Translations under genes and position numbers: made by a program
Notes under the pieces: model-generated
The model's database searches: none
Seen by the model: the letters and a program-made list of their open reading frames with translations, nothing else
Told to the model about the DNA's origin: nothing
Shown: positions 29,504 through 55,518 of the stretch, piece by piece
Layout: every line of letters starts with the position of its first letter
How positions within the stretch are numbered: the stretch's first letter is position 1
Assembly: GCA_024278455.1 (NCBI GenBank)
Contig: JAJRTE010000118.1
Location: forward strand, 33,521 to 97,520
Length of the DNA: 64,000 nt
Origin: Myxococcota bacterium
GTDB lineage: Bacteria; Myxococcota_A; UBA796; JAJRTE01
Direction: 5' to 3'

Positions 29504-29535
29504 CGAGGACCCCCGTTCAATCGGAATCAATCGCG

Positions 29536-33288: not shown

Positions 33289-33366
33289 GACATACCCCCG
33301 GGCTCTCAGCGTCCTTGAACAGATGTTTACCATGAAATCTCGATATCAACCACCGAAATTTCGTGG

Positions 33367-39237: not shown

Positions 39238-40665
39238 ATGCCAGGAGAGCAGCAAGTACTGACTCCCTCCACAAGTGCTTCGCTCGAATCGGTGTATCCT
39301 CAAACCAAATGGCTCGCCCTCGTGCCGGGCATCCTGCTGCTTGGGCTGGTCGTGGCGGGGATGGCGTCTCTCTTCTCGCCCCCACAGGATGCCGGACCGT
39401 ACGGCATGGCTGCGGGGAATCAGCAGAGAACCGATGATGGCGCCGGAACACCTTCGCTCCGCGAACAGGCCATCGAATCCATCCGGATGGCAGCAACACT
39501 CCAGGAAGAGGACCCCGCCGAAGCCGAACGGCTCTACCGGCGCGCCCAGCAGGTTGCGCTCGACGCAGGTGACAACGGAGTGGCCGCATGGTCTCTTCGC
39601 ATGCTCGGTGACATGAAGAGCGATAGCGCTGTGCGAAACGCACGGGATGGCGATGGAAACGCCCCGGCCGAGTTCGACGAAGCCGAGGCGTTGTTGCAGC
39701 AGGCGTTGGAGATGGATCAATCCCATGGGTACGTGCAGGACTCTTACCTCGACTTGCTAGCATTGGCCGCTCTGGAGAAAAAACGAAAGGATTACCCAGC
39801 GGCAGAAAAAAGGTACCGGGAGATTCACCAGATCGCCTCGATGGACTCCGGCATGGCTCCGCTGATAGCCTGTTCGGCAGCAGCCGACCTTGGCGACTTG
39901 CTTCGCGAAACCGAGGGAGACGTGAAGAATGCGCAGAAGGCCTACCAGGATTGCCTGGCGACCTATCGGGATAGGGGTGACGCGCCCCGGGAGGCCTACT
40001 ACCTGTGGCGGCTCGGCGTCAACGCGTTCGAGCGTCTCGCCTTTGACGAGGCCATCGAAAGCCTCGAGAAGAGCGTGAAGATTTGGGACGAGGAACGCAC
40101 ATCTGGCCGGCTGAAGGAGTGGAATCAGAAGCCGATTCCGTGGTGGACATGGGTCTCGGAACAGTGGCTGGCGGTGGCTCGTATCCTCGAGATGGAGGAC
40201 CTGCAGGACCGCGATGGCGTGCACCTTTCCGAAGCGGGCAGAGTACGGGCGCAAGACGTGGACCCTGAGTGGATAGCTGGGCTGGCCGATGAGGCCCGGA
40301 TGTGGGCCCAGGAGATCCCGGCCACCACAGATCACATGCCCTATGCTGTGTGGGCCACTGCACTGTACCACCGGCTCACAGCGGCGCGGGACGGGGCGGA
40401 TTCCTTGGACGTCGAGCAAGACTTGCTGCGCTTGCGCCGGCAACGCGCCGACCACGAACTGGCGTTCCTGGCTGGCCGCGAACTGGCCGCATTCTATCTC
40501 GAACGCGGCGAGCGTTCCAGGGCACGCGCGACCGTGGCAGGTACCCTGGAGATGTTTCGGCCAGTCTACGCAAACGTTCCTTTTCTCAATCTTCACCACG
40601 AAGATCTCCTGAGGTGGCAGCGATCGCTGTCCGAAGGCCGCAGCGAGGTTTCGCCGGGCCGCTAG
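39238..40665 (+). CDS. Membrane-anchored TPR-like repeat protein (module 1)
   Basis: N-terminal TM anchor (WLALVPGILLLGLVVAGMASLF) followed by a TPR-like helical repeat region. It is a paralogue of the ORF at 60419..61867, sharing LAFDEAIESLE, ELAFLAGRELAAFYLE and NVPFLNLHHEDLLRWQ. Confidence 0.7.
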   Translation: MPGEQQVLTPSTSASLESVYPQTKWLALVPGILLLGLVVAGMASLFSPPQDAGPYGMAAGNQQRTDDGAGTPSLREQAIESIRMAATLQEEDPAEAERLYRRAQQVALDAGDNGVAAWSLRMLGDMKSDSAVRNARDGDGNAPAEFDEAEALLQQALEMDQSHGYVQDSYLDLLALAALEKKRKDYPAAEKRYREIHQIASMDSGMAPLIACSAAADLGDLLRETEGDVKNAQKAYQDCLATYRDRGDAPREAYYLWRLGVNAFERLAFDEAIESLEKSVKIWDEERTSGRLKEWNQKPIPWWTWVSEQWLAVARILEMEDLQDRDGVHLSEAGRVRAQDVDPEWIAGLADEARMWAQEIPATTDHMPYAVWATALYHRLTAARDGADSLDVEQDLLRLRRQRADHELAFLAGRELAAFYLERGERSRARATVAGTLEMFRPVYANVPFLNLHHEDLLRWQRSLSEGRSEVSPGR

Positions 40666-41273: not shown

Positions 41274-43487
41274 TTGTCTCGATCTCCCTATCGCGGCGCG
41301 CCCACGGTGAAGGCCCGGTGTGCAACCGGGTCTCCCGAAGACCAGGCTTCCACGTTGCACCTGCGGCTTCCCGGAACCAGGGTGGCAGATCCATCAAGGA
41401 CCGTATCCATCCAGTTGCCGTGCACGAATGGTTTCGACTGGCCCCTCGAGGTGGCGAATCGCAGTGGGCCGGCGAATGAGGCGCGCGTTACGTTTCGAGC
41501 CGGTTCGGAGGAGACGTCGGCCGACCGTGCGCCCATGCCCTTCTTCATCCGCCGCAACGATTTTGTCGAAAGGCGTCTTGCGGAAATCGCACCGATCGGG
41601 ATCAACGCTCTCGCCTGCGGCCTCCCTGGCGACATCTGTGCCGTGGGAGGACGTGCCGGCTCGACCATGGTGAAGGAGCCGTTCGAGCAATCCGTTCTCC
41701 ACCTGTCATACAGCGATGGCTTGCCCGGTAGAGCCGTGATGTCGCTGGACCGTGCCGGCAAGACACTGTGGATTCAGACGGAGGATGGTTATTGCCGCTA
41801 CGATCCTCCCGGCGTACTACGGTGCGGACCGGCGACACCTGGGCTCGCCCGCTCCAGGCCGGGCAGATATCGAATCGTGGCGGATCCCATCCTGGAAGAA
41901 TGTGCCTGGGCGTTGCGGCCCGGCGGCAAGGTCAGGGCGGTCCATGGGCCATCTGGACCGATCGGCTCGGCGTTGAGGGAATACGAGGACGAGGTGCTGG
42001 AGGCGTTGGAAGCAGACGACATCGTGCTGCTGAACCTGGATCGCTGCCAGCAGCTTTGGGTGCTGGAGGGCGGGAAGCAGTACGACGTGTTCGTGCGCTG
42101 TCTTTTCGAAGACCCCCGCGACTCGAGCAGCCCATGTGGAGGATGGGTGGCCCCCCCCTCGAACCAGGTGCCGCTGGATGGCGATATCTGGCATGCAACG
42201 GGCGATCCTGCCCGCGTTGCATGGGTGTGGGGCTGGGGAACCGGGACGCTGAGAATCGACGCCGCTGTCGAGGATGGGAGCGTGGAGACCGGTGTTCGCC
42301 CCAAAGGAAGCCCCGTGTACGAGGAGAAGCTGCACACCCTTCTGCCGAAAGATGAGAAGGGGGGCTCGGACACGAACGTCCGATTGATTCTTCCTACCCG
42401 GGAGGGGGTCTGGATCGCTGGAGCGCAACGCGTCTGGTGGATCCCGAGAAAAGACTCGGGAGACGCAGAGCCCGGCGCCCCGGAACCGGGGAGTGCAGGC
42501 GACAAAGGTTTTGTTGGGCAGGTGCCTCGTGCGACCAGAGAGGGCGCTTCGCCGATCATCAAGGCCATGGCACCCACCGATGGCGGTGCCGGGGAGGCGC
42601 TTCTTGTTGCGACCGACCTGGGCGTGCACCGCTGCTGGCCCACTTTTGATGCCAAAGACCGCGTCACGTGCCGGGCGAGCACGCGAGTAGGGTACGCCGG
42701 TCCACAGGACGCGCGAATTACGGCCGCCTGGGCCGACATGAGCGGACGGTTCTGGGTGGGAGACTCCCGCGGTGGCGTTCATCTTCTGAGCCTGGACAGA
42801 ACGTTCGTACCCCATTGGGCCGACTCCATCGATCTGGGCGACAAGTACTATGCCGGCTCTGAACCTTTGGAGTCCGATAGTGGTGGTGGAGCTGACAGGG
42901 GCTGCTCGAGAGAGCGTCGAGCGGTTCAGGCCCTGGTGAAGACCAGCCGGTGGCTGTACATCGCTTGTTCGGACATGCTGTTTCTTTGGGACGTCGAGGG
43001 GCTTCCGGGCAGCGGAGGTGTCGCACCCCGGAGCACACCTGTCCCAATCATGTTCCAGAAGCCCTTTCTCACACCCGCGAATGCGGACGACCTGTTCGAC
43101 CGTCTTCCCATCGCAAGAATGCGGCTCGACCCTCAGAGCAGGGTGTTGGTCGCTACCAGCAACGGCCTCTACAGCGGTCCCCCTGTCGGCAAGGGGGGCG
43201 ACAACTCGCCGGTCTATTTGCGGTCAGTCCCACTTCCCCTTCCGCACGTAGGCGATGACACGGGAAACGGTGTCCCACGAAATAAGATCTCGGACTTCGC
43301 CTGCGATCGGAAAGACCGCCTGTGGGTGATAGTCGGCGGCAGCCTCTCGTACTTCAAGGTCGAGCATCGAGGGAACGCCACGAGCAGCGATACCGGCAGC
43401 GGGACCGCGCAGGCGAGCGACGAAGGATGCGGAACGGATCGATCGTCACAACAAGACGGGACGCCGGCGGACAACGCTCCAGAATGA
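41274..43487 (+). CDS. Large Reg_prop (two-component regulator propeller)-like beta-propeller repeat protein (module 1). The N-terminus is possibly disrupted
   Basis: Repeats of the L-W-I/V-G/A-T-x-x-G-L/I-x-x-Y/F type (TLWIQTEDGYCRYD, RFWVGDSRGGVHLL, LWVIVGGSLSYF). Paralogue of 56480..60067. A signal/anchor-like segment (LVVLLLAVLFSSSPVHG) lies in the same frame upstream but is separated from the TTG start by an in-frame TAG at 41214-41216. Confidence 0.6.
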   Translation: MSRSPYRGAPTVKARCATGSPEDQASTLHLRLPGTRVADPSRTVSIQLPCTNGFDWPLEVANRSGPANEARVTFRAGSEETSADRAPMPFFIRRNDFVERRLAEIAPIGINALACGLPGDICAVGGRAGSTMVKEPFEQSVLHLSYSDGLPGRAVMSLDRAGKTLWIQTEDGYCRYDPPGVLRCGPATPGLARSRPGRYRIVADPILEECAWALRPGGKVRAVHGPSGPIGSALREYEDEVLEALEADDIVLLNLDRCQQLWVLEGGKQYDVFVRCLFEDPRDSSSPCGGWVAPPSNQVPLDGDIWHATGDPARVAWVWGWGTGTLRIDAAVEDGSVETGVRPKGSPVYEEKLHTLLPKDEKGGSDTNVRLILPTREGVWIAGAQRVWWIPRKDSGDAEPGAPEPGSAGDKGFVGQVPRATREGASPIIKAMAPTDGGAGEALLVATDLGVHRCWPTFDAKDRVTCRASTRVGYAGPQDARITAAWADMSGRFWVGDSRGGVHLLSLDRTFVPHWADSIDLGDKYYAGSEPLESDSGGGADRGCSRERRAVQALVKTSRWLYIACSDMLFLWDVEGLPGSGGVAPRSTPVPIMFQKPFLTPANADDLFDRLPIARMRLDPQSRVLVATSNGLYSGPPVGKGGDNSPVYLRSVPLPLPHVGDDTGNGVPRNKISDFACDRKDRLWVIVGGSLSYFKVEHRGNATSSDTGSGTAQASDEGCGTDRSSQQDGTPADNAPE

Positions 43488-43805: not shown

Positions 43806-44906
43806 ATGGAGCGGTATGGCATGGCGTGGCTCGTGGATGCAGCCCAACTGACTACACGTCTCGGCAAGGCCCTCGTCTCGGGCCGTGTGCCAAACTACGT
43901 CATCGCCTTCGTGACCGGACACTGCAACATGTCCTGCGCCTTTTGCTGCCCGGCTTCCCGGTCCATCCGTGACGCGGATGAACTCGACCCGGACCAGTGG
44001 GGGCGCGCCTTGTCCGGGTGCGACGCACTGGTTCATCTCACCGTCACCGGCGGCGAGCCCTTCTTGCGCGACGACCTCCTCGACGTCGTCTCGAGTATGG
44101 TAGGTTCCAGCGGCGTTCCTCGGCTGAGCATCAACACCAACGGGTACTTCACGGGCAGGATCTTCGCCACCCTCGAGACGCTGTTGCGCCGGTTCCCGGG
44201 GGTCGACACCTGCCTGGCGATCTCCCTGGACGGACCTCGAGCCGTTCACGACGCGCTGAGAGGCATGCCCGGGGCGTTCACGCGGGCCCGATCCACCATC
44301 GACGAGGTGGACAGGCTGCGCTCGAGGTATCCTCGGCTCACGGTCCGTCTCACGTCGGTCCTACAGCCGGACAACGCAGATGTGCTGGGACCGTTCCTCG
44401 AGGAGACCGCCCTCTGGCCCGTCGACTTCCACGAGCTGGCCTTGATCCGTGACGTGCCGATCGAGGTTCAGCGCCAGGTGGTGGAAGCCTACCGCAGGCT
44501 CACCGCCGTGCAGCTCCGCCGGGCATCCCGCCGCTACCTCCAGACCATGGATTGGCGGCTCGCCCGGCAGCTCCGGCAGGACGTGTTGGACCAGACCGCC
44601 GAAGGGGCGAGACCGTTTGGTTGCCTCGCGGGCGGCCGGATGATCGAGGTGATGGCCGACGGCACCGTGCGCGGGTGCGAAATGGAGAAGATGCGGCCTC
44701 ACAGCAACCTGGGGCGGGTTGGGGGTGACGCACACACCATCGTGGACCTGCTGGCCGGCGAACCGGCGAGGCGGTTCCGGCGCAGGGCGGCGTCGTGCCA
44801 CTGTACGTTCGAGTGCGCACTGACCTGCAAGACCGTATTCACGCCTCGAGCATGGCCCCGCCTGTGGATGCCACGTCGCTTCGGGCCGGAACAGGAGGAC
44901 CGATGA
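43806..44906 (+). CDS. Radical SAM / SPASM-domain protein
   Basis: CxxxCxxC (GHCNMSCAFCC), GGEPFL, and a C-terminal Cys-rich SPASM-like region (CHCTFECALTC). Confidence 0.8.
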   Translation: MERYGMAWLVDAAQLTTRLGKALVSGRVPNYVIAFVTGHCNMSCAFCCPASRSIRDADELDPDQWGRALSGCDALVHLTVTGGEPFLRDDLLDVVSSMVGSSGVPRLSINTNGYFTGRIFATLETLLRRFPGVDTCLAISLDGPRAVHDALRGMPGAFTRARSTIDEVDRLRSRYPRLTVRLTSVLQPDNADVLGPFLEETALWPVDFHELALIRDVPIEVQRQVVEAYRRLTAVQLRRASRRYLQTMDWRLARQLRQDVLDQTAEGARPFGCLAGGRMIEVMADGTVRGCEMEKMRPHSNLGRVGGDAHTIVDLLAGEPARRFRRRAASCHCTFECALTCKTVFTPRAWPRLWMPRRFGPEQEDR

Positions 44907-45916
44907 ACCCGGTGGCGGTCAGCATTATCGTCCCCGCGCACAACGAAGCCTCGAGGCTCGATACGTGCTTGTCATCGATCGTCGAGATGTCCCGAACCAA
45001 GGGCTGGCAGGCACTGGTGGTGGACGACGGGAGCACCGACGAGACCGCCAAGGTCGCTCGAGGCGCGGGCCTACCGGTGATCCGAAACGAGACGCCACAA
45101 GGGGTGGCGGCGGCCCGCAACCTGGGAGCCAATCGCGCCGATGGCGACGTGCTGGTCTTCGTCGACGCCGATGTGGTGGCGCCGGCGGAAACACTCGAGG
45201 CCCTCGTCGCGCGGTTGGTGGACGATGCTGGCGTGCATGCTGTGGGTGCGTGGCCCGAAGTTTCGGACCTGTCGCCGGAATGGAGTGCCCGGTTCGTGGG
45301 CCTCCGCGCTGCCATGCCTTTCAAGATCGGGCCGCGATCGGACATCGAGTGCTTTTCCGCTTTCCAGTCCGAGTGCGGGGCCATCCGTCGCGAAACGTTC
45401 CAGGCCGTGGGAGGCTTCCCGGACCATCACCGGGGCGTTGGCATGGAAGAGTTCGAGATGGGCCACACTCTCGAGCGTCTCGGTTACCGGAATGTCATCC
45501 TGGCCGATGCCCACTACTACCACCATTTCAAACCGCTCGGTCCCCGGTGTCGCGAGCTGTACCGGCGAACGCGCCGGTGGGTTCCGCTCCTGCTCGACCG
45601 CGGGCGTCTCGAGTCCACCGGGGCGGTGGGAACTGGCCACGAGACCCTGTCCTGCGGGCTGTCCGTGGCCGCTGCCGCCGGGTTGGTGGTCGCGCCGTTT
45701 CACGCCGGCGGGCTGGTGTTGTCCGCTTCCGCCCTGGCTGCGCAAGGCTTGGTCGAGCGGCGGTTCCTGGCCCTGGCCCGGCGCACGTGCGGCCCCGCGA
45801 TGGCGCTGTACGCCCTGCCTGCGCTTCAGTGCATCAACCTGTCGATCGCCGCGGGGTTTGCGGCCGGGCTGGTCGACCAGGTCGCGCGCGGCGGCCGGAC
45901 GCCGGAGCAACGGTGA
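44903..45916 (+). CDS. Family 2 glycosyltransferase (GT-A fold)
   Basis: VSIIVPAHNEA ... VVDDGSTDET ... DxD (FVDAD). The start overlaps the stop of the preceding radical SAM gene. Confidence 0.8.
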   Translation: MNPVAVSIIVPAHNEASRLDTCLSSIVEMSRTKGWQALVVDDGSTDETAKVARGAGLPVIRNETPQGVAAARNLGANRADGDVLVFVDADVVAPAETLEALVARLVDDAGVHAVGAWPEVSDLSPEWSARFVGLRAAMPFKIGPRSDIECFSAFQSECGAIRRETFQAVGGFPDHHRGVGMEEFEMGHTLERLGYRNVILADAHYYHHFKPLGPRCRELYRRTRRWVPLLLDRGRLESTGAVGTGHETLSCGLSVAAAAGLVVAPFHAGGLVLSASALAAQGLVERRFLALARRTCGPAMALYALPALQCINLSIAAGFAAGLVDQVARGGRTPEQR

Positions 45917-45944
45917 TGGGGCGCTCCTGTTTCGGCGCAGCGCG

Positions 45945-45982
45945 CTGCGCCCCTGCCTCCCTCGCTCCTACTCGCTACTCGA
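45945..45982 (+). repeat. Partial copy of a roughly 30-bp GC-rich repeat motif (gYGCCCCTG ... CTCGCTaCTyC); see also 61951-62063
   Basis: tgcgcccctgcctccctcgctcctactcgctactcg aligns with the two direct repeats at 61958 and 62032. Confidence 0.3.
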
Positions 45983-46009
45983 GACGATGTCAAGATGGGT
46001 TGGGCGACC

Positions 46010-46471
46010 CTATTGGGGTCCTCGAGACGATCGCAACTCCCGATAACGTGTCTCTTCATGGAGTTCCGAATGGTGCGAACGGTGTTGGAAGCTCAACAAC
46101 CAATGGGAACCGGTCAGCAGGAATTGCCCGGTTTCGTCGCGGTTGGCGTCGATCCGCTCCTTGATGTAAGGAAGGAGGTCCGGGGCGTACTGCACCTCGT
46201 CGAATATCACGGGCGGTGGGTACATCTCGACGAAGGTACGCGGATCTCGCTGTGCAGCCCCGCGGACATCGGGTGGCTCCAGGGAGACGTAGCGGTGGTG
46301 CGTTCCGAAGAGGTGCAGCAGGAGCGTGGTCTTGCTGGCCAGGCGGGGTCCGGTGAGCACCAGGGCCGGGAACTCGGCGGCCGCTTCCTTGAGGATGGGC
46401 TCCAACGATCGCTCGATGTCGGCTGGACGCACGGGCAGCCTCCTTGGTGGAGACGCGCATTTCGAATGCAC
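46010..46471 (-). pseudogene. N-terminal fragment of an AAA_14/DUF4143-family ATPase with a degenerate Walker A
   Basis: ALVLTGPRLASKTTLL (the GK Gly is replaced by Ser), IFDEVQYAPDL, FLLTGSH, then loss of similarity after about 120 aa. Homologous to the intact copy at 32089..33288. Confidence 0.5.
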
Positions 46472-47079
46472 GAAGTCAGGTGCTGGAGGCGATTCACCGC
46501 AGGTTGAGCCGGTTGGCCACGGAAGAACGGCGTCTTCGCACGGCTTGGCGGTTGGCGACCGGCCTGGGATCCTCCCATCCGACGGAAAACGGGTTCACCT
46601 TCGACTGGAACGTCGGCGTGCCGTTTCTCCCAGGATCGTCCCTCAAAGGGCTCGCACTCGCCCATGCGCGCCTGATCGGGATGACCGAGGACCGTGTCAC
46701 GGCCCTGTTCGGGCTCCAGCGGGACGAGGACCGGGTGCGCGAGGACTGGAGCGCGTCGGGAGACCTGGTCTTCCTGCCCGCCTACCCCAGCCGGTGGCCG
46801 GACATCGAGGTGGATGTGGTCAACTGCCACCACCCGGAGTACCATGGAGATCGCCCGGGCAGCCGTCCGGCACGTCCGGCTGTGGACTACGAGAATCCCA
46901 ACCCTGTCTTCTTTCTCACCGTGGCTTCGGACCAGGACTTCATCTTCCGGCTGTTCAGCCGGACCGGAGACCTGCGGGCGGTCGAGCGCGGGTTCCAACT
47001 CCTCGAGGAGGGCCTGGGCACGCTTGGCGTCGGGGCAAAGACTGCCGTGGGGTATGGGTTGCTGGCGCCGGTCTCGTGA
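46444..47079 (+). CDS. RAMP-superfamily protein (Cas7 group, Cmr6/Csm3-like), solitary
   Basis: Cmr6-type N-terminal motif (TGLGSSHPTENGFTFDWNVGVPFLPGSSLKGLALAHARL) and a C-terminal glycine-rich loop (LGTLGVGAKTAVGYGLL). 211 aa with a TTG or GTG start. There is no other cas gene in the window. Confidence 0.65.
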   Translation: MVETRISNARSQVLEAIHRRLSRLATEERRLRTAWRLATGLGSSHPTENGFTFDWNVGVPFLPGSSLKGLALAHARLIGMTEDRVTALFGLQRDEDRVREDWSASGDLVFLPAYPSRWPDIEVDVVNCHHPEYHGDRPGSRPARPAVDYENPNPVFFLTVASDQDFIFRLFSRTGDLRAVERGFQLLEEGLGTLGVGAKTAVGYGLLAPVS

Positions 47080-47223
47080 CGAGTCGAGGCAGGTGGTGAT
47101 GTGCGGGCTCGTGCCGCGGAAGATCTCGAGAAGGAAGGGATTGTATTACAGATGGAACAACGTTCGTCATGCCCCGGTCGTGCGAGCACGAATGGACCGG
47201 AGAGGGACATCTTCAGGGCTCTA

Positions 47224-47388
47224 CTCTTCGGCACAAACCTGGCTCGAGGGAGAGGAGGGGGTGCAGTCGTAGTCTTGCGGCAAGAACCCGGCCGGGGCGT
47301 CCTCCCACGTGCCGGGCCAGAAGTAGTCCGGGAAGCCGTCGCCGTCCAGGTCCCAGGTCGCGCCGCTGTGTCCGGAGTCGTCCGGCAT
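47224..47388 (-). CDS. Candidate small ORF (55 aa): Asp/Trp/Tyr-rich peptide with an FG-GAP-like DxDGDGxxD loop
   Basis: MPDDSGHSGATWDLDGDGFPDYFWPGTWEDAPAGFLPQDYDCTPSSPSSQVCAEE. About 40 of the first 42 codons end in G or C (strong GC3 bias typical of real genes here). No clear Shine-Dalgarno. Absent from the track because it is under 60 aa. Confidence 0.3.
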
Positions 47389-47570
47389 TCGTAGGTCGGG
47401 GAGTCTTCGTCGTACGGGAGGCTGGACAAAAGGTCGTACGCCCTTCAGATGTCTCGAGACGAGGACCGTGAGCGGTTCGATCGGATGGCCGTGGTGCTCG
47501 ACTACGCGGCGATGTCATTCCCGACAAAGGTTCCGAACGGGCTTGAAATACCGCGCCGCGGCTGCTAGCC

Positions 47571-48947
47571 TTGAAAAGATACGTTGGTCATGGTGTGCAG
47601 CCGCGGCGTGCGACCTGCGGAAAACCCGGGTTTCTGAGAGTTGACTTGGATACGAAACGGATTCGGAAGCTGGACCGGTTCGCCGGAAAACCCTTGTGCC
47701 TGTCGTTGACCGTCCTCGAGCGGGTGCGTCGCACCGTTCGGCCGCGTGCCGGCGAGCCACCGAAAAAGATCCTGTTCCTCAAGCTCATCGAGATGGGCTC
47801 CACCGTGTTGGCCTGCCCGAGCTTCGAGGAGGCGACCGGCATGGTCGGTCGGGACAACCTGTACATCCTGGTGTTCGAGTCCAACCGCGCCATCGTGGAC
47901 ATATTGCCCTACTTCGAGCAGGACAATGTGTTGACAATCGACGATCGCAGTCTGCCCCGGTTCGTGCTCGGACTTCTCCGCGTGATGTGGCGAACCCGCC
48001 GGGAAAAGATCGACACCGCCATCGACATGGAAGGGCTCACGCGGGCGTCGGCGATCATCACCTACCTGACCGGGGCGAAGCGGCGGGTTGGATTCCACAA
48101 TTTCAGCGCCGAAGGTCCCTACCGGGGGCGGCTGTTCACCATCGAGCTGGGATACGCTTTCCAGCACCACACGGCCCGGATGTTCCTCTCCCTGGTGCGG
48201 GCCCTCGAGGCCCCGCTGGACCAGGTCCCCAAGCTCAAGCGAACCGTCGAAGTCAGCCCGGACGCCATGCCCCGTTTCGAGCCCACGTTGCAGGAGTTGG
48301 AAGAGATGGAGACAGGGCTCGATCAACGCTTCGTGGCGGGCTCGAGCGGAACCACGCCCCGGGGGCGCATTCGGGCCCGGCGAGGACCCAGGGTCATCTT
48401 GAACCCGAACTGCAACGACCAGCTCCCGCTCAGGAAATGGCCGGAAGATCGTTTCGTCGCCCTGGGCCGGCGACTGCTCGGAACCAGGGACGACCTCACG
48501 CTGATACTGACCGGCAACCCGTCGGAGCGGGCACCCTCCGAGGCGATGGCTCGAGCCATCGGGCCGGCGGACCGCGTGATCTCCATGGCCGGGGACACCT
48601 CGCTACGCCAGCTCTTGACCCTGTACCACCTGGCGGACGTCCTGGTCTCGAGCGATAGCGGTCCGTGCCACTTCGCCGCGCTGACACCCGTCCACGTGGT
48701 GGCCCTGTTCGGCCCGGAGACGCCGGCGCTATACAGCCCGCTGAGCGACCGGGTGACCACGATTTCCGCCGGCCTGGCATGCAGTCCCTGCCTCAACATG
48801 CTCAACCACCGGCTGTCGTCCTGTACCGACCCGGTGTGCATGCGAGAAATCCCGGTGGAGACCGTGCTGGGCGCCACGCTCGAGGCCCTGGCTTCGCGCC
48901 CGCAACGGCTCGATGCCGCCCAGGCGCGTGCTCCCGCAGGTTCATGA
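47571..48947 (+). CDS. Family 9 glycosyltransferase (ADP-heptose:LPS heptosyltransferase-like)
   Basis: KKILFLKLIEMGSTVLACP at the N-terminus and HLADVLVSSDSGPCHFAAL (GT9 signature). The exact start is uncertain (TTG/GTG candidates). Confidence 0.75.
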   Translation: MKRYVGHGVQPRRATCGKPGFLRVDLDTKRIRKLDRFAGKPLCLSLTVLERVRRTVRPRAGEPPKKILFLKLIEMGSTVLACPSFEEATGMVGRDNLYILVFESNRAIVDILPYFEQDNVLTIDDRSLPRFVLGLLRVMWRTRREKIDTAIDMEGLTRASAIITYLTGAKRRVGFHNFSAEGPYRGRLFTIELGYAFQHHTARMFLSLVRALEAPLDQVPKLKRTVEVSPDAMPRFEPTLQELEEMETGLDQRFVAGSSGTTPRGRIRARRGPRVILNPNCNDQLPLRKWPEDRFVALGRRLLGTRDDLTLILTGNPSERAPSEAMARAIGPADRVISMAGDTSLRQLLTLYHLADVLVSSDSGPCHFAALTPVHVVALFGPETPALYSPLSDRVTTISAGLACSPCLNMLNHRLSSCTDPVCMREIPVETVLGATLEALASRPQRLDAAQARAPAGS

Positions 48948-50092
48948 TGGACTTCCTCGAGACAGTAGGCCAGGCAGGCGAACACGGCGACGGGTCGGCA
49001 GACCGGACATCGAGTGCTTGGCGCGCTGTAACCCAGGCAGGCGTGATGATGGACGTGTGGCTCGCGAGGCACCTGGGCCGGAAGCCGCGCTACCTGCCCA
49101 TCGTGCTGGCATTCATGACGTTCCGCTGCAACCTGAGTTGTCGGGCGTGCGGGGTCGAGTTTCAGCACGACGAGACGAAGAGGGAACTGACCACCGGGGA
49201 ATGGAAGCGCGCCCTGGACTCGATGGCCAGGCTTCGCACGTCGATCATTTCCATTTCCGGTGGAGAGGCGCTCCTGCGGCCCGACATCTTCGAGATCATC
49301 GCCCATGCCCGGCGGCGAGGGATCGCGGTCCACCTGTGCAGCAACGCGACCCGTATCGGTGCGCGAACGGCCCGGCGGCTCGCCGAGGCCGGAACCCACA
49401 CGGTTTCCGTCTCCCTGGATGGCTCGAGGCCCGCCGTGCATGACGCCATCCGTGGCAAGGGGTCGTTCGAGGCCACCCTGGCCGGCATCCGGGCGCTCAG
49501 GCAGCACGCGCCGGGCGTGCGTATCGGCATCAACACCCTCGTTACCACCGTCAATGCCGCCGACATGCTGCCGTTGTTGGCTCTCGCCGAATCCCTGGGT
49601 GCCCACCAGGTGAAATTCGCGCCTGTGCACACCAATCTGCTCCACAGGGACAAGCCGGTGGACGCATACGGGGACCTGATGTTTCGCACCGAGGACGAAA
49701 TCCGCGGCCTCGAGATCGAGGTGGCCCGGTTGATTCGGGCGTCGAGACGATCACGGGTCCAGGTCAATCCGGCCGCCTACCTCGAGGGGATCGCCGACCT
49801 TTACCGGACGCCCAGGCGATTCCGGTGCTTCGCCGGCCATGCCGTCTGTGCCATCGGGCCGACCGGCGAGGTGACGCCCTGCTGCGACATGTCCGGAGGC
49901 CCGAGCATCAGGACCCGGCCGCTCGAGGAGATATGGCTCGGGGACGCCTTCCACGTGCTGCGGCAGGAGGTGAGGCATTGCCGCGCGCCGTGCTGGGACA
50001 CCACCAACACCGAGCTGAGCCTGCGGTTGTCGGTACGAAACCTGCCCGCCGTGCTCCCCGATACGTGGCGGGCGCTGCGATTCTACTTCTGA
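48944..50092 (+). CDS. Radical SAM / SPASM-domain protein
   Basis: CxxxCxxC (FRCNLSCRACG), SISGGEALL, and C-terminal SPASM cysteines (CFAGHAVCAIGPTGEVTPCCDM ... CRAPCW). The ATG overlaps the GT9 stop (ATGA). Confidence 0.8.
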   Translation: MMDFLETVGQAGEHGDGSADRTSSAWRAVTQAGVMMDVWLARHLGRKPRYLPIVLAFMTFRCNLSCRACGVEFQHDETKRELTTGEWKRALDSMARLRTSIISISGGEALLRPDIFEIIAHARRRGIAVHLCSNATRIGARTARRLAEAGTHTVSVSLDGSRPAVHDAIRGKGSFEATLAGIRALRQHAPGVRIGINTLVTTVNAADMLPLLALAESLGAHQVKFAPVHTNLLHRDKPVDAYGDLMFRTEDEIRGLEIEVARLIRASRRSRVQVNPAAYLEGIADLYRTPRRFRCFAGHAVCAIGPTGEVTPCCDMSGGPSIRTRPLEEIWLGDAFHVLRQEVRHCRAPCWDTTNTELSLRLSVRNLPAVLPDTWRALRFYF

Positions 50093-50103
50093 AAGGAACA
50101 GCG

Positions 50104-51297
50104 ATGATTCCACGACGGCGAGCCTACCTGGACCCGGACGAGTTTTCCTTCGTCGCGCGGATCCTCGAAACCGGGTCAACCCCGGTCCACGCGGTGGCAC
50201 GTCTCGAGGAGGCGGTGGCGTCTCGAGTCGGCACGGCCGCAGGGGTCGCAATGAGTTCAGGACGCCGGGCGATGGTCGCCATCCTGTCCCACCTCGAGGT
50301 CGGTCCCGGGGACGAGGTGGTGATACCGGCCTACACGCTCAAAGACCTGGTACCCCTCATCCAGGGACTCGGGGCCACAGCCGTGCCTGCGGACATCGAC
50401 CCCGAAACGTTCAATGTCTCCCGGGATACGGTCGCCCCGAGGCTGACATCGAGAACTCGAGCGATCCTGGTCGTGCACCTGTTCGGCGCACCGTGCGATA
50501 TCGAGGGCATCGTGGACCTGGGACGGAACCGAGGTATCCCCGTGATCGAGGACTGCGCCCACGCTCTGGGCAGCAGTGTCCATGGCCGGCAAGTCGGCTC
50601 ATTCGGCCGCGCCGCCTTCTTCAGCTTCGAAACCACCAAGCCGGTCAACACCTTCGGCGGCGGCATGGTGGTCACGAACGATCTCGAGTTGGCAGCAGCG
50701 GTCCGATCGGCCCGCGCGGGCGCCTGCATGTCTTTCGAGGCGTTCCGCCAGAAGACCACTTCCGTGGTGCTCGAGGACCTGCTGTTCCGCACCGGGTTGG
50801 CGGCCCCATTCCTGTTCTTGCTGGCCACTCCCAGGTTCAAGAGGTGGATGAACCAGGCGTACCGGCGGTTGCAGCACGCACCCCCGGCGGACACCGCCTA
50901 CCTGCCGGTCCAGGCCGAACTGGGCCTGCGGAAGCTGGCTTCCCTCGAGACGCGGGTCGCGGAACGGGAGCAGATTGCGCTCCGGTACCGGGCATTGCTC
51001 GCCCCCCGAATCACGATCCAGAAGGTCCCGGCCGGGTGCCGGAGCACCTGGTACTTCCTCGTGGCATTGCTGCCTCGAGACGCTGCTCCCGTGCGTCGCG
51101 CGCTCCTGCTCCGCGGCATCGACGCCGGGGTCGAGGACGAGATCGCCGATGACTGCGCAGCATGGCTCGAGCGGAGCGATTGTCCAGTGGTGGCGGACGT
51201 CGCCCGCCGTGCCATCGCGCTGCCGATCTACGAAGGGTTGCGGGAACGCGACCTTCGTCAGGTGGCACACACCTTGAATACCCTGGTCGCGGGATGA
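50104..51297 (+). CDS. DegT/DnrJ/EryC1/StrS-family PLP-dependent aminotransferase (sugar aminotransferase/dehydratase)
   Basis: PAYTLKDLVPLI, VVHLFGAPCDI, VIEDCAHALGS, SFGRAAFFSFETTKP (the PLP-lysine region). Confidence 0.8.
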   Translation: MIPRRRAYLDPDEFSFVARILETGSTPVHAVARLEEAVASRVGTAAGVAMSSGRRAMVAILSHLEVGPGDEVVIPAYTLKDLVPLIQGLGATAVPADIDPETFNVSRDTVAPRLTSRTRAILVVHLFGAPCDIEGIVDLGRNRGIPVIEDCAHALGSSVHGRQVGSFGRAAFFSFETTKPVNTFGGGMVVTNDLELAAAVRSARAGACMSFEAFRQKTTSVVLEDLLFRTGLAAPFLFLLATPRFKRWMNQAYRRLQHAPPADTAYLPVQAELGLRKLASLETRVAEREQIALRYRALLAPRITIQKVPAGCRSTWYFLVALLPRDAAPVRRALLLRGIDAGVEDEIADDCAAWLERSDCPVVADVARRAIALPIYEGLRERDLRQVAHTLNTLVAG

Positions 51298-51382
51298 CGG
51301 GGAGCAAGGCGCGGGGGGCGGAGCAGGACAGGACGGCACCGGTAACCCTGAGCGCGCTGACTCGGACATGGCGGGGCGGGGG

Positions 51383-52795
51383 CTACCCGAACGCCAGCAT
51401 GGCTCGAGCGCCTCGCAAATGCACCTTCCACTCCGTCCAGGTCCTCATGCCCATGGCACGCCGGAACAGGTAGCGCGGCCTGAGGTAGAAGGCGCGATAG
51501 GAACGGTCCAGGAACGCCTGGTATTCCTCGGCGCTCAGACCCTCCGGGACGTACACCAGGGCGTTGTGATCCAACGTGGAACTCTGTTCGAAATCGAACT
51601 GGTATCCTCGAGCCGACAGCTCTTCGTAGAACGTCGTGCCCGGGAAAGGCACGAACTTGTTGAAATGGGCGAAGTCCAGGTCGAGTTCCCGGGCGAACGC
51701 CAGGGTCCGTTCCAGGGTCTCCCGGGTTTCGGCGGGTGAGCCAACCAGGAAGTCCGCGCGCACCCGCAGCCCGGCTTGCCTCGCCCATTGCACCGCGCGC
51801 CGGTTCTGCGCCGCCGTGTTACCCTTGTTCAATGTCTTCAGGATGGCGTCGTCCCCGGACTCGAGCCCGAAGAGCACCTGCCAGCAGCCGGCGTCCTTCA
51901 TCATCGAAAGCATGTCGAGGTCCACGGCGTTGACTCGAGTCAGGCAGGTCCAGGGAAGCCGGGGGCGGAAACGGCGCAATTCGCGACACAACCGCTCGAG
52001 ACGGCGGCGGTTGAGGGTGAAGGTATCGTCGAAGAAACGGATTTCCCGCGCGCCGTACTTGCCGGCCAGGAGTTCGATCTCCCCCATGACGTTCTCGACG
52101 GAGCGCTCCCGGTAGCGCTCTCCGAACACGGCCCGGTCGCAGAAGTTGCACCGGGAGGGACAGCCTCGAGATGTCATGACGTGGGCGAGGGGGAGTCGGC
52201 GCAGGGATGCCGGGCAGGGCTCGTAGGCTTCCAGCGGGGGCAGGAGGTGGCGGGCCGGGTAGGGAATCGTGTCCAGGTCTTTCACGAACGGCGCGGGCCC
52301 GGTCCAGCAGGGCTTGCCGCCGGCCTCGAATACCAGCCCGGGAATCGACTCCGGCTGCGGTCCCCCGCCCTCGAGATGCGCAAGCAAGGCGGAAAAGGTC
52401 GTCTCGCCCTCCCCCAGGACCAGGAAGTCGAACCGGCCGGATTCGATGGTCTCTTCGGGCATGGCGGTGGGGTGGGACCCGCCGGCCACGAACGCCGCGC
52501 CGGGAATGATGCGCCGGAGGATGTCCGCGGTCCTGACAGCGTTGCTGAAGGAAGGCGTGGTGACGCTGACGCCGACCACGTCAGGCCGAAAGCTGCGTCC
52601 TTCCACCGAGATAGCTTCCCACGGAAGGCCTCGAGCACAGTCCAGGATGTGGACATCGTGGCCGTCCCGCTCGGCCACGGCAGCCAGGTAGGCCAGGCCC
52701 AACGACGGAATGATGTTCTCCACCCCGGAGAAGAGCTGGCGCTGCCCGCCGATGTCGGTGGCGCCAAAGGGCACGTCCACCAGCAGCACTTTCAT
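51383..52795 (-). CDS. B12-binding-domain radical SAM protein (class B cobalamin-dependent radical SAM)
   Basis: N-terminal cobalamin-binding Rossmann-like domain (KVLLVDVP ... GLAYLAAV ... PDVVGVSVTT), then CPSRCNFC and the downstream radical SAM core. Confidence 0.85.
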   Translation of the reverse strand: MKVLLVDVPFGATDIGGQRQLFSGVENIIPSLGLAYLAAVAERDGHDVHILDCARGLPWEAISVEGRSFRPDVVGVSVTTPSFSNAVRTADILRRIIPGAAFVAGGSHPTAMPEETIESGRFDFLVLGEGETTFSALLAHLEGGGPQPESIPGLVFEAGGKPCWTGPAPFVKDLDTIPYPARHLLPPLEAYEPCPASLRRLPLAHVMTSRGCPSRCNFCDRAVFGERYRERSVENVMGEIELLAGKYGAREIRFFDDTFTLNRRRLERLCRELRRFRPRLPWTCLTRVNAVDLDMLSMMKDAGCWQVLFGLESGDDAILKTLNKGNTAAQNRRAVQWARQAGLRVRADFLVGSPAETRETLERTLAFARELDLDFAHFNKFVPFPGTTFYEELSARGYQFDFEQSSTLDHNALVYVPEGLSAEEYQAFLDRSYRAFYLRPRYLFRRAMGMRTWTEWKVHLRGARAMLAFG

Positions 52796-52999
52796 CGCTC
52801 GACCTCGTTTCCACACCGCACCCGCAACCGCTCGTGCCGGTCCCGGGGGACCCGGCTCGACCGCATACCGCCCTGCACATTCCGGGATTGTGTCCAGTAT
52901 GAGAAGACCCGGCGGTCTCCCTGGGTGCGCCTGCGTTCCGGGTGAAAGGACCTCGTCGCGGGGCTGACGCCGCCGGGACGGGGTCCTGTCGGCTCCCTG

Positions 53000-53563
53000 C
53001 TACAAGATACGGCCTCCCACGGCCTCCATCAGCCCCGCGTGGGGGGCGGGAATGACCTCGATGTTGGTGACCATGCCCGGTTCGGCGGCCTCCTCGAGGT
53101 ACCTGGCGGCCTCCTCGACCTCGTACAAGGGGCCGGTGATGAGGAAAAAGGCCTTCCCACCGAGCCCCTGGGCCAGGCGCAGATCGAGGAGCCGTACCGC
53201 GTTGTGCTTCAGCGCCTGGTCTGCCAGAACGACCGCGGCGGACACCGAGAAGGTCTCGACAATGACCACCGAATCGATCTCCTGGTCCTGGTTGCCACCG
53301 GTCATGGCGGGGAAAACCTCCTCGCTGATGTTCGGGATGAACAGGCTGTCGACTACCGCCTCGCCGCCGTAGTGCAATCCCTCTTCCATCGCCTCCTGGA
53401 CCTCGCGCTCGCCACCCGCCACGAGAACCATGTACTTGCCCGGGCACAGGCTGTGAGACTCGAGCACGGTGATCCGGGCCTTCTTGAGCATGACATCATG
53501 AACGAGGATGCCTCGAGCAACGCTGTTGGTCTCCACGAGGCCGAGTGCTGGGTATTTCATCAT
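53000..53563 (-). CDS. Tandem-BMC-domain microcompartment shell protein, PduT-like (possible Fe-S pore ligand in CPGK)
   Basis: Two BMC domains (ALGLVETNSVARGI ... ; VVIVETFSVSAAV ...). The LCPGKYMVLVAGG motif corresponds to the Fe-S-ligating Cys of PduT. 187 aa. Confidence 0.8.
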   Translation of the reverse strand: MMKYPALGLVETNSVARGILVHDVMLKKARITVLESHSLCPGKYMVLVAGGEREVQEAMEEGLHYGGEAVVDSLFIPNISEEVFPAMTGGNQDQEIDSVVIVETFSVSAAVVLADQALKHNAVRLLDLRLAQGLGGKAFFLITGPLYEVEEAARYLEEAAEPGMVTNIEVIPAPHAGLMEAVGGRIL

Positions 53564-54879
53564 CCACCCATAATGACGATACGGTCGCTCGAGACCTCCA
53601 CCACCTGTCCGGAGATGGACGCGTGGTGGTTGGCTCCGAGCTTGCCGGCTGGAATGCGCGCGATCAACTGCCCCTTGGAAACGTGATCGCCTCTCCGGAC
53701 CACCGGCTCCGAAGGCGCCCCGCTCTGCTGCGTCAGGGAGATGGCGACTCGAGGCGGGTCCTCCATCCGGGTCAGGGGCAGGTCATGGTCCTCGTAGGGC
53801 TTCAACTGGTACCGGCGCGTGATCCTGTCCTTGCCGATCTTGCGATACTTGTTGAACTCGTGGAGCTGCCTGGGGGCATGGTGGTGCGGATTCTTGACCC
53901 CGGCCGCCCGCAACCGCTCGAGGATCTCGGCGTAGGCCCGCCTGGGACTGAGATACATCGGGCAGGCAAACTCGCACAGCCCGCACTGGGAGCACAGGAA
54001 CGCCGCGGTCATCACCGACGTGGGCTGCTCCAGTTTGTATGCCAGCGTTCGCATCACCCTGTGGGGCTCGATATGGTGCCCCTGCATGTACCTCGAGCAG
54101 GCGTCAGTGCAGTAGCGGCACTGGCAGCAGGCGGCCACGCTCCGCCGGATCATCGCTTCCATGGTGATCTGCTTCTGCTGGACCACCGGGTGATCTCTCG
54201 GCAGGAACAGGATTCCGCTCGTCGTCTTGTTGACGGAAGCACCGGTGCCGACAATCCGGCCCATCATCGGTCCGCCGTCGATGATGGCGATGTCCTCCAC
54301 CGGGATCCTGGGCTGACAGCGCAGCAGAAGATCCAGCACCGGCGTGCCGATGGGCGCGATGATGACTTGCGGGTGTTCGATTTCCCCTGCCAGGGTCACG
54401 ATCCGGTCGGTCACCACACGACCGCGAGCAGCTCGAGCCACCTGGACCATGGTCAACACGTTGCTGACGACCGCGCCGACCTGGAGTGGAATGCCGCCCT
54501 CCGGGACGATTCGTCCGGTGAGGTCCGCGAGGAGTATGTGCTCGTCGCCGGCCGGGTAGGTGTTGCCCATCAGGCCAAGCTGGACGTTGCCGCGTCCGTT
54601 CAACTGCTCCGTCAGGGCCTCCACCGCTCCGTGGTAGTGTTTCTTGACCCCGATCAGGCCTCGAGACGCGCTGGTGTGGGACATGATCAGCAGCAGGCCC
54701 TCGAGGATTTCGTCGGCGTAGTGCTCCATGACCCGCTGGTCCGACGCGAGCAGGGGCTCGCATTCGGCCCCGTTGGCCAGGACCAGGTCCACCTTGGCAT
54801 CGATCTTCACGTGGGTAGGGAATCCCGCTCCGCCGCAACCGATGATGCCGGCGTCACGAACGATATCGACAAGAGACAT
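53560..54879 (-). CDS. PduS-like cobalamin reductase / RnfC-family flavin and Fe-S oxidoreductase
   Basis: GIIGCGGAGFPTHVKI (NADH/FMN-binding motif of PduS/RnfC). Two 4Fe-4S ferredoxin motifs (CCQCRYCTDAC, CSQCGLCEFACP). Its stop overlaps the PduT-like start. Confidence 0.8.
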   Translation of the reverse strand: MSLVDIVRDAGIIGCGGAGFPTHVKIDAKVDLVLANGAECEPLLASDQRVMEHYADEILEGLLLIMSHTSASRGLIGVKKHYHGAVEALTEQLNGRGNVQLGLMGNTYPAGDEHILLADLTGRIVPEGGIPLQVGAVVSNVLTMVQVARAARGRVVTDRIVTLAGEIEHPQVIIAPIGTPVLDLLLRCQPRIPVEDIAIIDGGPMMGRIVGTGASVNKTTSGILFLPRDHPVVQQKQITMEAMIRRSVAACCQCRYCTDACSRYMQGHHIEPHRVMRTLAYKLEQPTSVMTAAFLCSQCGLCEFACPMYLSPRRAYAEILERLRAAGVKNPHHHAPRQLHEFNKYRKIGKDRITRRYQLKPYEDHDLPLTRMEDPPRVAISLTQQSGAPSEPVVRRGDHVSKGQLIARIPAGKLGANHHASISGQVVEVSSDRIVIMGG

Positions 54880-54912: not shown

Positions 54913-55518
54913 TTACAGAATAGCGCGGGGCGGTGCAACCGAAAAGAGGCTGTGCAGGTCGGGTCTCGGGACTTCTCCGCCAAGGGCTCTCCGGCGGAGG
55001 GCCGTGACAGGGAGACGCAGGCGTCGTCTCGCGGGAGTGATCCGAGTGGATGAGTCACCGAACCACAGTGCTCCCTGGGTGTCTCGCGCGATGAAGACAG
55101 CCTCGGGAGACAGGCCGTGCTGTGGGCCGAACGGTCCTACCACCCCGTCCTGGGGCGTGATGGCGTAGGTCAACCGAAGGTCCTGGTCGCCGCCTCCACC
55201 GGTGGCGCCCCCCTTTCTACGCTCCGATACGAGTGCCCAGATGTTGCCCCGGCTGTCCTGGCCGAGCGCGCAGATGTTCGTCTCGACGGCGTTGCTCGAA
55301 GAGACGCTTGGTGGCGAGGAAGTACCGTGGGAAATGGCCCGCATTACCCGCGGCTTGCGATGCGACCGCTCCCCGTGCGATGACGGACCGGCAAAGCACG
55401 GGACGCCTTCGAGTGCCGGTGATTTCGGGCACCAGGGCGGCGTGTCGGTGGTTGCGGACATTGGGGAGCAGGTTTGGTGTTCGGGCACACGAGGGGTGGG
55501 ACTGCGAGGAGTTCGCAC
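54913..55518 (-). pseudogene. Truncated duplicate of a fragment of the large beta-propeller gene at 56480..60067
   Basis: It encodes SSSNAVETNICALGQDSRGNIWALVSERRKGGATGGGGDQDLRLTYAITPQDGVVGPFGPQHGLSPEAVFIARDTQGALWFGDSSTRITPA, identical except for one residue to an internal segment of the 1289-aa protein. The flanks are unrelated. Confidence 0.45.
55028..55306. repeat. Copy 1 of a roughly 279-bp near-identical direct repeat
   Basis: About 99% identical to 57115-57392. The two mismatches are gggAgacagg vs gggCgacagg and ctCcgatac vs ctTcgatac. Confidence 0.85.

Follow-up and report, generated by a model that had tools for sequence, protein, structure and literature searches.

Aminoglycoside pathways are marked by radical S-adenosylmethionine (radical SAM) dehydrogenases that work with DegT-type aminotransferases (BtrN-BtrS and SpeY), by B12-binding radical SAM methylases such as GenK, and by AprD4. 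The hopanoid side-chain pathway (HpnH, HpnI, HpnJ, and HpnO) has enzyme classes that match those of the cluster described here, which lies at positions 43806 to 52816 of a 64-kb stretch of DNA (the window) from a Myxococcota bacterium (contig JAJRTE010000118.1) and is followed by a PduS/PduT pair reaching position 54879. For the heptosamine of septacidin, oxidation by SepI followed by transamination by SepG has been described (PMC9978623), and PduS and PduT are regarded as a cobalamin reductase and a proposed electron conduit, respectively, in a study that also catalogued satellite loci of bacterial microcompartments (BMCs) (Axen et al. 2014, PMC4207490). Judging from sequence comparison and gene neighborhoods, we consider that the cluster in the window is probably a conserved and functional one for the building or tailoring of a heptose-type glycoconjugate of the cell envelope. 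Literature searches on this enzyme combination returned no description of the cassette.

Genes were called by open reading frame (ORF) analysis guided by GC content at third codon positions (GC3), and then by Pfam and NCBIfam profile searches, which recovered all genes listed in an initial annotation of this DNA (i.e., two radical SAM/SPASM proteins, a B12-binding radical SAM protein, GT2 and GT9 glycosyltransferases, a DegT-family aminotransferase, and the PduS/PduT pair). The six enzyme genes form three units: rSAM_A-GT2, GT9-rSAM_B-DegT, and the gene for the B12-binding radical SAM protein (B12-rSAM). GT9 (47571 to 48947, plus strand) is a heptosyltransferase-family enzyme (Pfam, 85.3 bits; cutoff, 22), and its stop codon is overlapped by the start of rSAM_B (48944 to 50092, plus strand), a radical SAM/SPASM protein (Radical_SAM, 89.2 bits; SPASM, 25.9 bits, above the cutoff of 21.5). 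The third gene of this unit (50104 to 51297, plus strand) encodes a DegT/DnrJ/EryC1-family, pyridoxal phosphate-dependent sugar aminotransferase (Pfam, 216 bits). Radical SAM enzymes with a SPASM or twitch domain were recognized by CX3CX2C together with a C-terminal, Cys-rich domain of the form CX9-15GX4C, and rSAM_B falls into the radical SAM plus SPASM family. B12-rSAM (51383 to 52816, minus strand; B12-binding, 87.9 bits against a cutoff of 32.1; Radical_SAM, 96.5 bits) appears to be a member of the class B radical SAM enzymes, in which an N-terminal B12-binding domain is fused to the radical SAM core.

We propose that GT9 would transfer an ADP-heptose-derived sugar, that rSAM_B, needing neither NAD nor O2, would turn a hydroxyl group of the sugar into a ketone, a chemistry for which BtrN, SpeY, and DesII are precedents, and that DegT would transaminate the ketone to give an amino sugar. 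B12-rSAM might C-methylate the sugar or else rearrange or dehydrate it, for which GenK-type methylases, AprD4, and HpnJ types are precedents, whereas the membrane-anchored GT2 and rSAM_A, often with a GT-C-like partner, would make or modify a second, probably lipid-linked, sugar. The closest solved structures to GT9 are heptosyltransferase II and a GT9 enzyme, and the radical SAM proteins have among their neighbors in sequence and fold the sugar-acting DesII, BlsE, AbmM, SpeY, BtrN, and AprD4.

The argument for a glycan rests largely on the company these genes keep elsewhere. A metagenome scan with B12-rSAM gave 55 related loci, with identities of 43 to 80% in about 35, and the trio of rSAM_B, DegT, and B12-rSAM was contiguous in about 15 loci. 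Two arrangements recurred, i.e., rSAM_B-DegT-B12-rSAM in L093, L094, L098, and L099 as well as on the minus strand of the genome locus L007, and DegT-B12-rSAM-rSAM_B in L102, L104, L106, L107, L108, L109, and L123; the trio genes were near one another in several further loci, and rSAM_B and DegT were adjacent, often overlapping, in about 20 loci. Unbiased clustering of all ORFs in these loci brought out GT2 (12 loci), GT9 (12 loci), and a further radical SAM protein (7 loci), and other recurrent families were sulfatase-like, GT87, SAM methyltransferase, metallo-beta-lactamase-fold, CMD-family, and NodU-type carbamoyltransferase proteins. These recurrent neighbors appear to have mostly sugar-handling or sugar-tailoring functions, and the recurrent families of the trio loci included no peptidase, no exporter, and no precursor-like small ORF. 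Sediment metagenome loci (L106, L107, L109, L116, and L121) carry four to six paralogs of the B12-binding radical SAM protein around the trio, which may be the same tailoring system in a far more elaborate form.

The most telling arrangement is that of L007, in which orthologs with 47 to 61% identity form an operon, hldE-hldD-GT9-rSAM_B-DegT-B12-rSAM, divergent from a gene for a membrane protein with 10 transmembrane (TM) segments that is followed by rSAM_A and GT2. The GT9 ortholog (54% identity) stands directly after hldE and hldD, and the equivalog cutoffs are exceeded both by HldD (286 bits against 274.6) and by domain II (adenylyltransferase) of HldE (192 bits against 181.5). This operon ties GT9 and the trio to ADP-heptose. 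The Third Party Annotation "binchicken" metagenome-assembled genome (MAG) records that contain L007 and L009 are labeled Enterobacterales, yet their DNA has 70 to 74% GC and a Planctomycetota-like gene content; such labels (Enterobacterales or Gammaproteobacteria) look unreliable and were not used as taxonomic evidence.

A second recurrent cassette is formed by rSAM_A (43806, or 43821 if the ATG start given in databases is used, to 44906, plus strand; Radical_SAM, 36.7 bits) and the gene for a GT2 glycosyltransferase with a hydrophobic C-terminal segment (44903 to 45916, plus strand; Pfam, 102.8 bits). The GT2 start overlaps the rSAM_A stop (ATGA), and the two genes are predicted to be a translationally coupled unit. 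In the family alignment of rSAM_A, the CX3CX2C motif and five further cysteines (C268, C286, C326, C328, and C332) were invariant, with the C-terminal spacings C268-X12-G-X4-C286 and C326-X-C328-X3-C332 also unchanging. Since its SPASM match (19.5 bits) lies under the cutoff, rSAM_A is best regarded as a radical SAM enzyme with an abbreviated, twitch-like version of the SPASM C-terminal Cys domain. Its homologs make up a tight family of about 30 proteins with 38 to 68% identity, and homologs with 37 to 68% identity are found across phyla; an exact look-up of rSAM_A of the window gave no match with either start. We surveyed 16 distinct loci with a member of this family, at 37 to 68% identity to rSAM_A of the window, and GT2 was directly downstream of the rSAM_A homolog in 12 of them, which are labeled Planctomycetota, Pelagibacter/SAR11, other Alphaproteobacteria, or unnamed or unreliably named MAGs. 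Several rSAM_A loci have a GT-C-like membrane protein of about 570 to 730 aa with 7 to 10 TM segments immediately upstream, and neighbors in these loci include sulfatase/EptA-like, PMT-like, sulfotransferase, and heparinase-like proteins, a sugar C-methyltransferase, epimerases, and YdjC with a formyltransferase. Taken together, the two cassettes are spread over Planctomycetota-like MAGs, SAR11, Nitrospirota, Gemmatimonadota, and many sediment MAGs.

Several observations weigh against the envelope-glycan assignment. No radical SAM protein, glycosyltransferase, or DegT protein of the cluster reaches a curated NCBIfam equivalog cutoff: GT9 is below all the WaaC, WaaF, and WaaQ equivalogs (63 bits against a cutoff of 134.6) and, with its 458 aa, exceeds the solved GT9 chains (348 to 349 aa) by about 110 aa, while rSAM_B is under every cutoff, with AhbD as its top match (134 bits against 500). 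The solved relatives of the radical SAM proteins also include the peptide-acting SkfB, anSME, CteB, SuiB, and PqqE. A structure was predicted for rSAM_A (AlphaFold2; pLDDT, 91), and the fold neighbors named here are therefore those of rSAM_A and not of rSAM_B; a Foldseek search with this model matched sugar-acting (SpeY, BtrN, and DesII) and peptide-acting radical SAM enzymes about equally, with TM scores of 0.5 to 0.6 and 12 to 19% identity, so that the fold does not decide the substrate. Besides, the ADP-heptose genes adjoin GT9 only in L007 and are absent from both the window and the locus of its closest relative, and three Nitrospirota loci (L004, L010, and L016) have an rSAM_A homolog with no GT2 detected beside it. 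In two of these, the rSAM_A homolog adjoins ResB/CcsA cytochrome c biogenesis genes (L004, 10001 to 13436; L016, 9959 to 14929), which in L016 are followed by a B12-rSAM ortholog with 35% identity. Given the unreached cutoffs and the mixture of sugar- and peptide-acting structural neighbors, the assignment of a glycan substrate rests on gene context, and both the proposed reaction order and the putative acceptor (lipopolysaccharide [LPS] core, another glycolipid, or a protein) are inferred.

Comparison with the closest relative, whose loci are L001, L002, L006, and L090, argues that the enzyme genes are a maintained system. In L001, all eight genes are present in identical order and orientation, with identities of 68% (rSAM_A), 70% (GT2), 73% (GT9), 71% (rSAM_B), 70% (DegT), 80% (B12-rSAM), 91% (the PduT-like shell protein), and 84% (PduS). 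There, the gaps within the cluster are 100 bp or less, the gap between GT2 and GT9 is 46 bp, and an alpha-2-macroglobulin gene stands directly after PduS; the alpha-2-macroglobulin homolog of the window is located at 62430 to 63989. This comparison implies that the window gained 1654 bp between GT2 and GT9 and about 7.5 kb, holding a propeller/TPR module and a duplicate piece, between PduS and the macroglobulin gene. The initial annotation took the region for horizontally acquired or decaying accessory DNA. Debris is present, as it proposed, but the enzyme genes are intact, full length, and syntenic with those of the relative, and their GC3 values (0.76 to 0.85) are the highest in the window (about 0.70 for the propeller/TPR genes). 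The cluster has a GC content of 0.66, its composition being at or above the window norm, and no integrase or tRNA gene was identified, although no tRNA scan was made. The enzyme cluster lacks the marks of a horizontally acquired island; it is the propeller/TPR modules and the debris insertion that vary, around and within an enzyme core that is conserved and intact.

That insertion (45917 to 47570), which runs from the GT2 stop to a promoter-like motif before GT9, is regarded as lineage specific because the corresponding gap of the relative is so short and tblastx against L001 gave no match for it. The only candidate target-site duplication around it was a 10-nt match at chance level. It contains three gene fragments. 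The first (46010 to 46471, minus strand; Pfam AAA_14, 57 bits) is a pseudogene that encodes 153 N-terminal residues of an AAA_14 ATPase and shares 32% identity with a full-length paralog, the 414-aa AAA_14/DUF4143 gene at 32089 to 33333, and the ATPase fragment mentioned in the initial annotation is thus real. The second, which was not among the genes listed there, is an orphan, N-truncated cmr6 gene encoding a type III-B RAMP protein (46444 to 47079, plus strand; TIGR01898, 110.7 bits; cutoff, 51.1); it shares bases with the 5' end of the AAA_14 fragment, which runs on the other strand, and aligns only to residues from about 120 or 167 to 336 of solved Cmr6 chains (296 to 376 aa). No CRISPR array or tandem-repeat array was found in the window, and those of its genes that were scanned included no further cas gene, so the truncated cmr6 stands alone and does not make a type III-B CRISPR-Cas (Cmr) system. 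The third fragment is a 55-aa ORF (47221 to 47388, minus strand).

This 55-aa ORF is the crux of the proposal that the locus matures a ribosomally synthesized and posttranslationally modified peptide (RiPP), i.e., that the ORF encodes a ribosomal precursor peptide on which the two SPASM-type radical SAM proteins, B12-rSAM, and the glycosyltransferases act. The ORF exists with its DLDGDGFPD motif and a coding-like GC3 of 0.89, a value reached by just 2.6% of the 189 window ORFs of 45 to 70 aa. Besides, SPASM/twitch enzymes and B12-rSAM methylases are common among RiPP maturases; of the solved proteins, the RiPP maturase SkfB is the nearest to rSAM_A in sequence (E = 2e-10), SkfB and PqqE being the top solved matches for the SPASM-type enzymes; and the ApyD model gives B12-rSAM a score of 169 bits. 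However, the intergenic gap in which the ORF lies is the insertion that the closest relative lacks, and the ORF has no counterpart in more than 140 related loci, L001 and L007 included, nor any Shine-Dalgarno-like sequence upstream. A phmmer search against 1.84 billion representative proteins returned 106 matches, in nearly all of which residues 5 to 52 of the ORF correspond to the last 48 or so residues of proteins of 55 to 2453 aa, with the common C-terminal motif WDxDxDGxPDYFWPGxWxDAPAGFxPxDYDCDDxDPxVQxC; the long matches are right-handed beta-helix, NosD, and Chlam_PMP repeat proteins with MopE-type metal-binding motifs. The match to the C-terminal ends of such proteins indicates that the ORF is the stranded tail of a gene for a beta-helix, MopE-motif secreted protein and not a precursor peptide, and its coding-like GC3 is explained by this origin. 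The suggestion in the initial annotation that it is a substrate or precursor is accordingly abandoned, and the whole of 45917 to 47570 is a junk insertion outside the enzyme system.

Related loci point the same way. Among intergenic ORFs of 20 to 100 aa compared across 66 loci, no small ORF of the window had a cross-locus match, and the related loci lack any conserved small ORF as well as leader-recognition domains, peptidases, and ABC exporters. All maturase models score far below their cutoffs (e.g., SkfB, 46 bits against 300; PqqE, 97 against 381), and the radical SAM proteins do not fall into housekeeping families either. Thus, of the two options raised in the initial annotation, glycan modification is upheld by gene context and RiPP-like maturation is not, as the loci offer no precursor, peptidase, or exporter; the latter strikes us as barely credible. 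The same annotation had named radical SAM proteins of housekeeping families, conserved polysaccharide-type neighbors, and no conserved small ORF as the pattern that would speak against a peptide, and the last two of these are observed, its proposed search for the same enzyme set having found the eight genes in L001 and the trio and rSAM_A-GT2 in many loci. The only small ORF that recurred was a hydrophobic, single-TM one of about 52 aa, absent from the window and present near the trio in four loci (L105, 8627 to 8785; L123, 5911 to 6069; L132, 9171 to 9329; and L022, 3361 to 3573, where an N-terminal extension makes it about 70 aa). It ends in KWWLxPIIxxLLLLGxLIFxTQSSAVAPFIYTLF, has no Pfam or NCBIfam match, and is near a carbamoyltransferase gene in L123; considered as a precursor, it was rejected as not precursor-like.

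The insertion also seems to have spared the transcription of the second unit. A motif, TTGAAA-N17-TAGCCT (CTTGAAAT-N15-TAGCCT), is conserved just 5' of GT9 in the window (47542 to 47571, plus strand) and in L001 (about 12125 to 12154), and in these two sequences, the only ones compared, it may be the GT9 promoter. The same two sequences suggest that GT9-rSAM_B-DegT has its own promoter, which the insertion left intact. Because the motif lies upstream of GT9 in both genomes, the true start of GT9 may be the GTG at 47595. A generic consensus promoter scan did not call this motif, promoter and terminator scans giving matches at chance level, and an Rfam scan detected no riboswitch or other RNA family, including the cobalamin riboswitch.

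A lipid, as opposed to a heptose-type glycan, was considered as the object of tailoring. According to this explanation, GT2 would glycosylate a membrane lipid polyol, and a radical SAM protein, B12-rSAM, and the aminotransferase would convert the sugar to an amino-cyclitol-like head group, as in hopanoid tailoring. The top NCBIfam matches of B12-rSAM are indeed HpnJ and BchE, rSAM_B and GT2 match HpnH and HpnI, respectively, GT2 has a C-terminal membrane segment, and rSAM_B weakly matches the lipid-acting GDGT-MAS. However, these scores are far under the cutoffs (HpnJ, 205 bits against 577.6; HpnH, 77 against 225; HpnI, 28 against 310), the aminotransferase is of the DegT type and not of the HpnO class, and neither a squalene-hopene cyclase nor any other hpn gene was present in any locus examined. 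The module is present in SAR11 glycan loci, the position of GT9 beside hldE and hldD in L007 favors ADP-heptose glycans, and hopanoid-type tailoring is decidedly unlikely.

Likewise, the cluster might make a diffusible, aminoglycoside- or aminocyclitol-like secondary metabolite instead of an envelope glycan, and AprD4, which is not known to use B12, is the closest solved relative of B12-rSAM (E = 7e-30), with SpeY and BtrN among the fold matches of rSAM_A. Neither the window nor L001, however, contains a cyclitol synthase, a resistance gene, or an exporter; the wider neighborhood in the window is one of envelope housekeeping (RodA, PBP2, a SurA-like protein, LptD, LD-carboxypeptidase, and a Mur-ligase-family protein, as well as alpha-2-macroglobulin); and the GT-C-like and EptA-like membrane enzymes of related loci are typical of surface glycans. 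Considering also its wide spread in SAR11 and Planctomycetota surface-glycan loci, we regard a secondary metabolite cluster as very improbable and retain the envelope glycoconjugate.

Whether the adjoining redox pair belongs to the same system was considered separately. The pair consists of a PduT-like shell protein with two BMC domains (BMC-T; 53000 to 53563, minus strand; Pfam BMC) and a PduS/RnfC-like flavoprotein with two 4Fe-4S clusters (53560 to 54879, minus strand; Pfam Complex1_51K, Fer4_17, and RnfC_N), the PduS stop overlapping the BMC-T start by 4 nt, as in orthologs. BMC-T matches the PduT structures 3pac and 3n79 (E = 1e-35) with the cluster-ligating Cys of "CPGK" aligned, and with its tandem BMC domains and this 4Fe-4S-ligating Cys, it appears to be of the PduT type, though it is under the TIGR02526 PduT/EutT equivalog cutoff (128.9 bits against 250.3). 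The PduS-like protein scores 239 bits against TIGR01945 rnfC (cutoff, 246). No other BMC-domain or EutN-like ORF was found in the window by Pfam analysis of the flanking genes and by tblastn with PduA and EutN queries, and as the window contains no BMC-H, BMC-P, or signature enzyme, it does not amount to a metabolosome locus.

It is conceivable that PduS reduces cobalamin or feeds electrons to B12-rSAM or to the clusters of the other radical SAM proteins, with BMC-T as its partner outside a microcompartment. The activities ascribed to the two proteins (PMC4207490) would suit such a recruitment, and so would the lack of other shell genes in the window and the conserved ligating Cys. Furthermore, PduS, PduT, and B12-rSAM lie on one strand with gaps of 76 to 183 bp, an order kept between the window and L001, and co-transcription is possible, which counts against treating the pair as independent. 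However, the window and L001 are so close that this synteny may persist through descent alone, and PduS/PduT adjoins B12-rSAM in just 1 of the 55 B12-rSAM loci, the L090 locus of the same lineage. The BMC-T orthologs form a clade of 186-aa proteins with 62 to 81% identity, and in all three loci followed, they are paired with a 440-aa PduS-like gene: in L086, the pair is beside a complete BMC locus (four EutN, BMC-H, aldehyde dehydrogenase, DeoC, RpiB, DeoR, and a CsoS1D-like protein), and in L088 and L089, it is alone among unrelated genes. With pairs so placed, PduS-PduT looks like an independent, two-gene BMC redox satellite whose adjacency to B12-rSAM would most simply be positional, and recruitment into the enzyme system is unlikely. 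Such pairs evidently occur as free-standing satellites with unrelated neighbors. An assignment of the pair to the Planctomycetes-Verrucomicrobia (PVM) type of BMC was tried and rejected; the full locus in L086 has DeoC and RpiB, and not the class II aldolase that defines that type.

A bolder possibility, which we think doubtful as a whole, is that the two uncharacterized cassettes constitute a radical route, independent of NAD and O2, to a C-methylated or rearranged amino-heptose, or another amino sugar, on envelope glycans, with the orphan PduS-PduT recruited here as a cobalamin or Fe-S reductase. If the mechanism proposed for the cluster holds, it would be a new radical-SAM-based route to modified amino sugars on bacterial surfaces, operating in abundant environmental groups that include SAR11, in its surface-glycan regions, and Planctomycetota-like MAGs. 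The envelope chemistry of those groups is poorly known, and such glycans shape recognition by phages and grazers. The two clean, recurrent cassettes are open to enzymology. The locus also illustrates how a short ORF with biased GC3 next to SPASM enzymes can turn out to be the tail of a pseudogene and not a RiPP precursor.

Regarding the flanks, the paralogous TPR/propeller modules described in the initial annotation are real and inverted. Upstream are genes for a TPR protein (38932 to 40665, plus strand; Pfam) and a Reg_prop propeller protein (41274 to 43487, plus strand; a weak Pfam Reg_prop match), and downstream are their paralogs, a 1289-aa propeller protein (56480 to 60349, minus strand) and a TPR protein (60482 to 61789, minus strand), the TPR pair being 42% and the propeller pair 36% identical. 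These two-gene modules bracket the cluster and are absent from the flanks of L001. A 278-nt direct repeat with 99% identity (55029 to 55306 and 57115 to 57392) was also present, and its first copy, just upstream of PduS, is a piece recently duplicated from the C-terminal part of the 1289-aa propeller gene. Farther away, a 706-aa ORF (27419 to 29539, minus strand) joins a beta-lactamase-family domain (residues 25 to 373) to an AccD-type zinc ribbon/carboxyl-transferase (residues 451 to 664), and may be a fusion or the result of a missed stop. A thermolysin-like M4 peptidase (35043 to 38309, minus strand) is seemingly split into two adjoining ORFs, of which 36741 to 38309 encodes the FTP and catalytic domains, and 35043 to 36737 encodes the M4 C-terminal, NIDO, and CarboxypepD_reg domains.

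Among described systems, LPS inner-core/heptose loci (hldE-hldD with WaaC, WaaF, and WaaQ) resemble the cluster in having a GT9 enzyme, with heptosyltransferase II among the closest solved structures, and the L007 ortholog shares an operon with hldE and hldD genes that pass or nearly pass equivalog cutoffs. In contrast, GT9 of the window is below the cutoffs for those transferases, is longer, and is clustered with three radical SAM enzymes, whereas classical core loci have none. RiPP maturases of the SPASM class (SkfB, PqqE, anSME-like, and ScmE/F) have in common with the cluster a radical SAM core and a C-terminal domain with Cys-rich auxiliary-cluster motifs, whereas the conserved partners here are glycosyltransferases, and a precursor gene, an RRE domain, a peptidase, and an exporter are all absent; the scores against the maturase models are each 5- to 10-fold under the cutoff. 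Hopanoid tailoring shares the set of enzyme classes (radical SAM, membrane GT2, B12-rSAM, and aminotransferase), but differs in the sub-cutoff scores, the aminotransferase family, and the hopanoid core genes, none of which is nearby. The PduS-PduT pair is like that of Pdu-type BMCs in the Fe-S-ligating Cys of PduT and in the Nuo51-FMN, two [4Fe-4S], and RnfC_N domains of PduS, although the nearest full locus with such a pair, L086, is of a DeoC/RpiB sugar-phosphate type. The closest analogy in chemistry is with septacidin (SepI/SepG) and the BtrN/BtrS and SpeY pairs, where a sugar is oxidized to a ketone and a PLP aminotransferase installs the amine, as we envisage for rSAM_B and DegT. SepI, however, is no radical SAM enzyme, rSAM_B belongs by sequence to neither the BtrN nor the SpeY family, and the context here is an envelope glycan and not an antibiotic. 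In its workings, the cluster would come closest to an envelope-glycan tailoring locus with chemistry borrowed from aminoglycoside and heptosamine biosynthesis.

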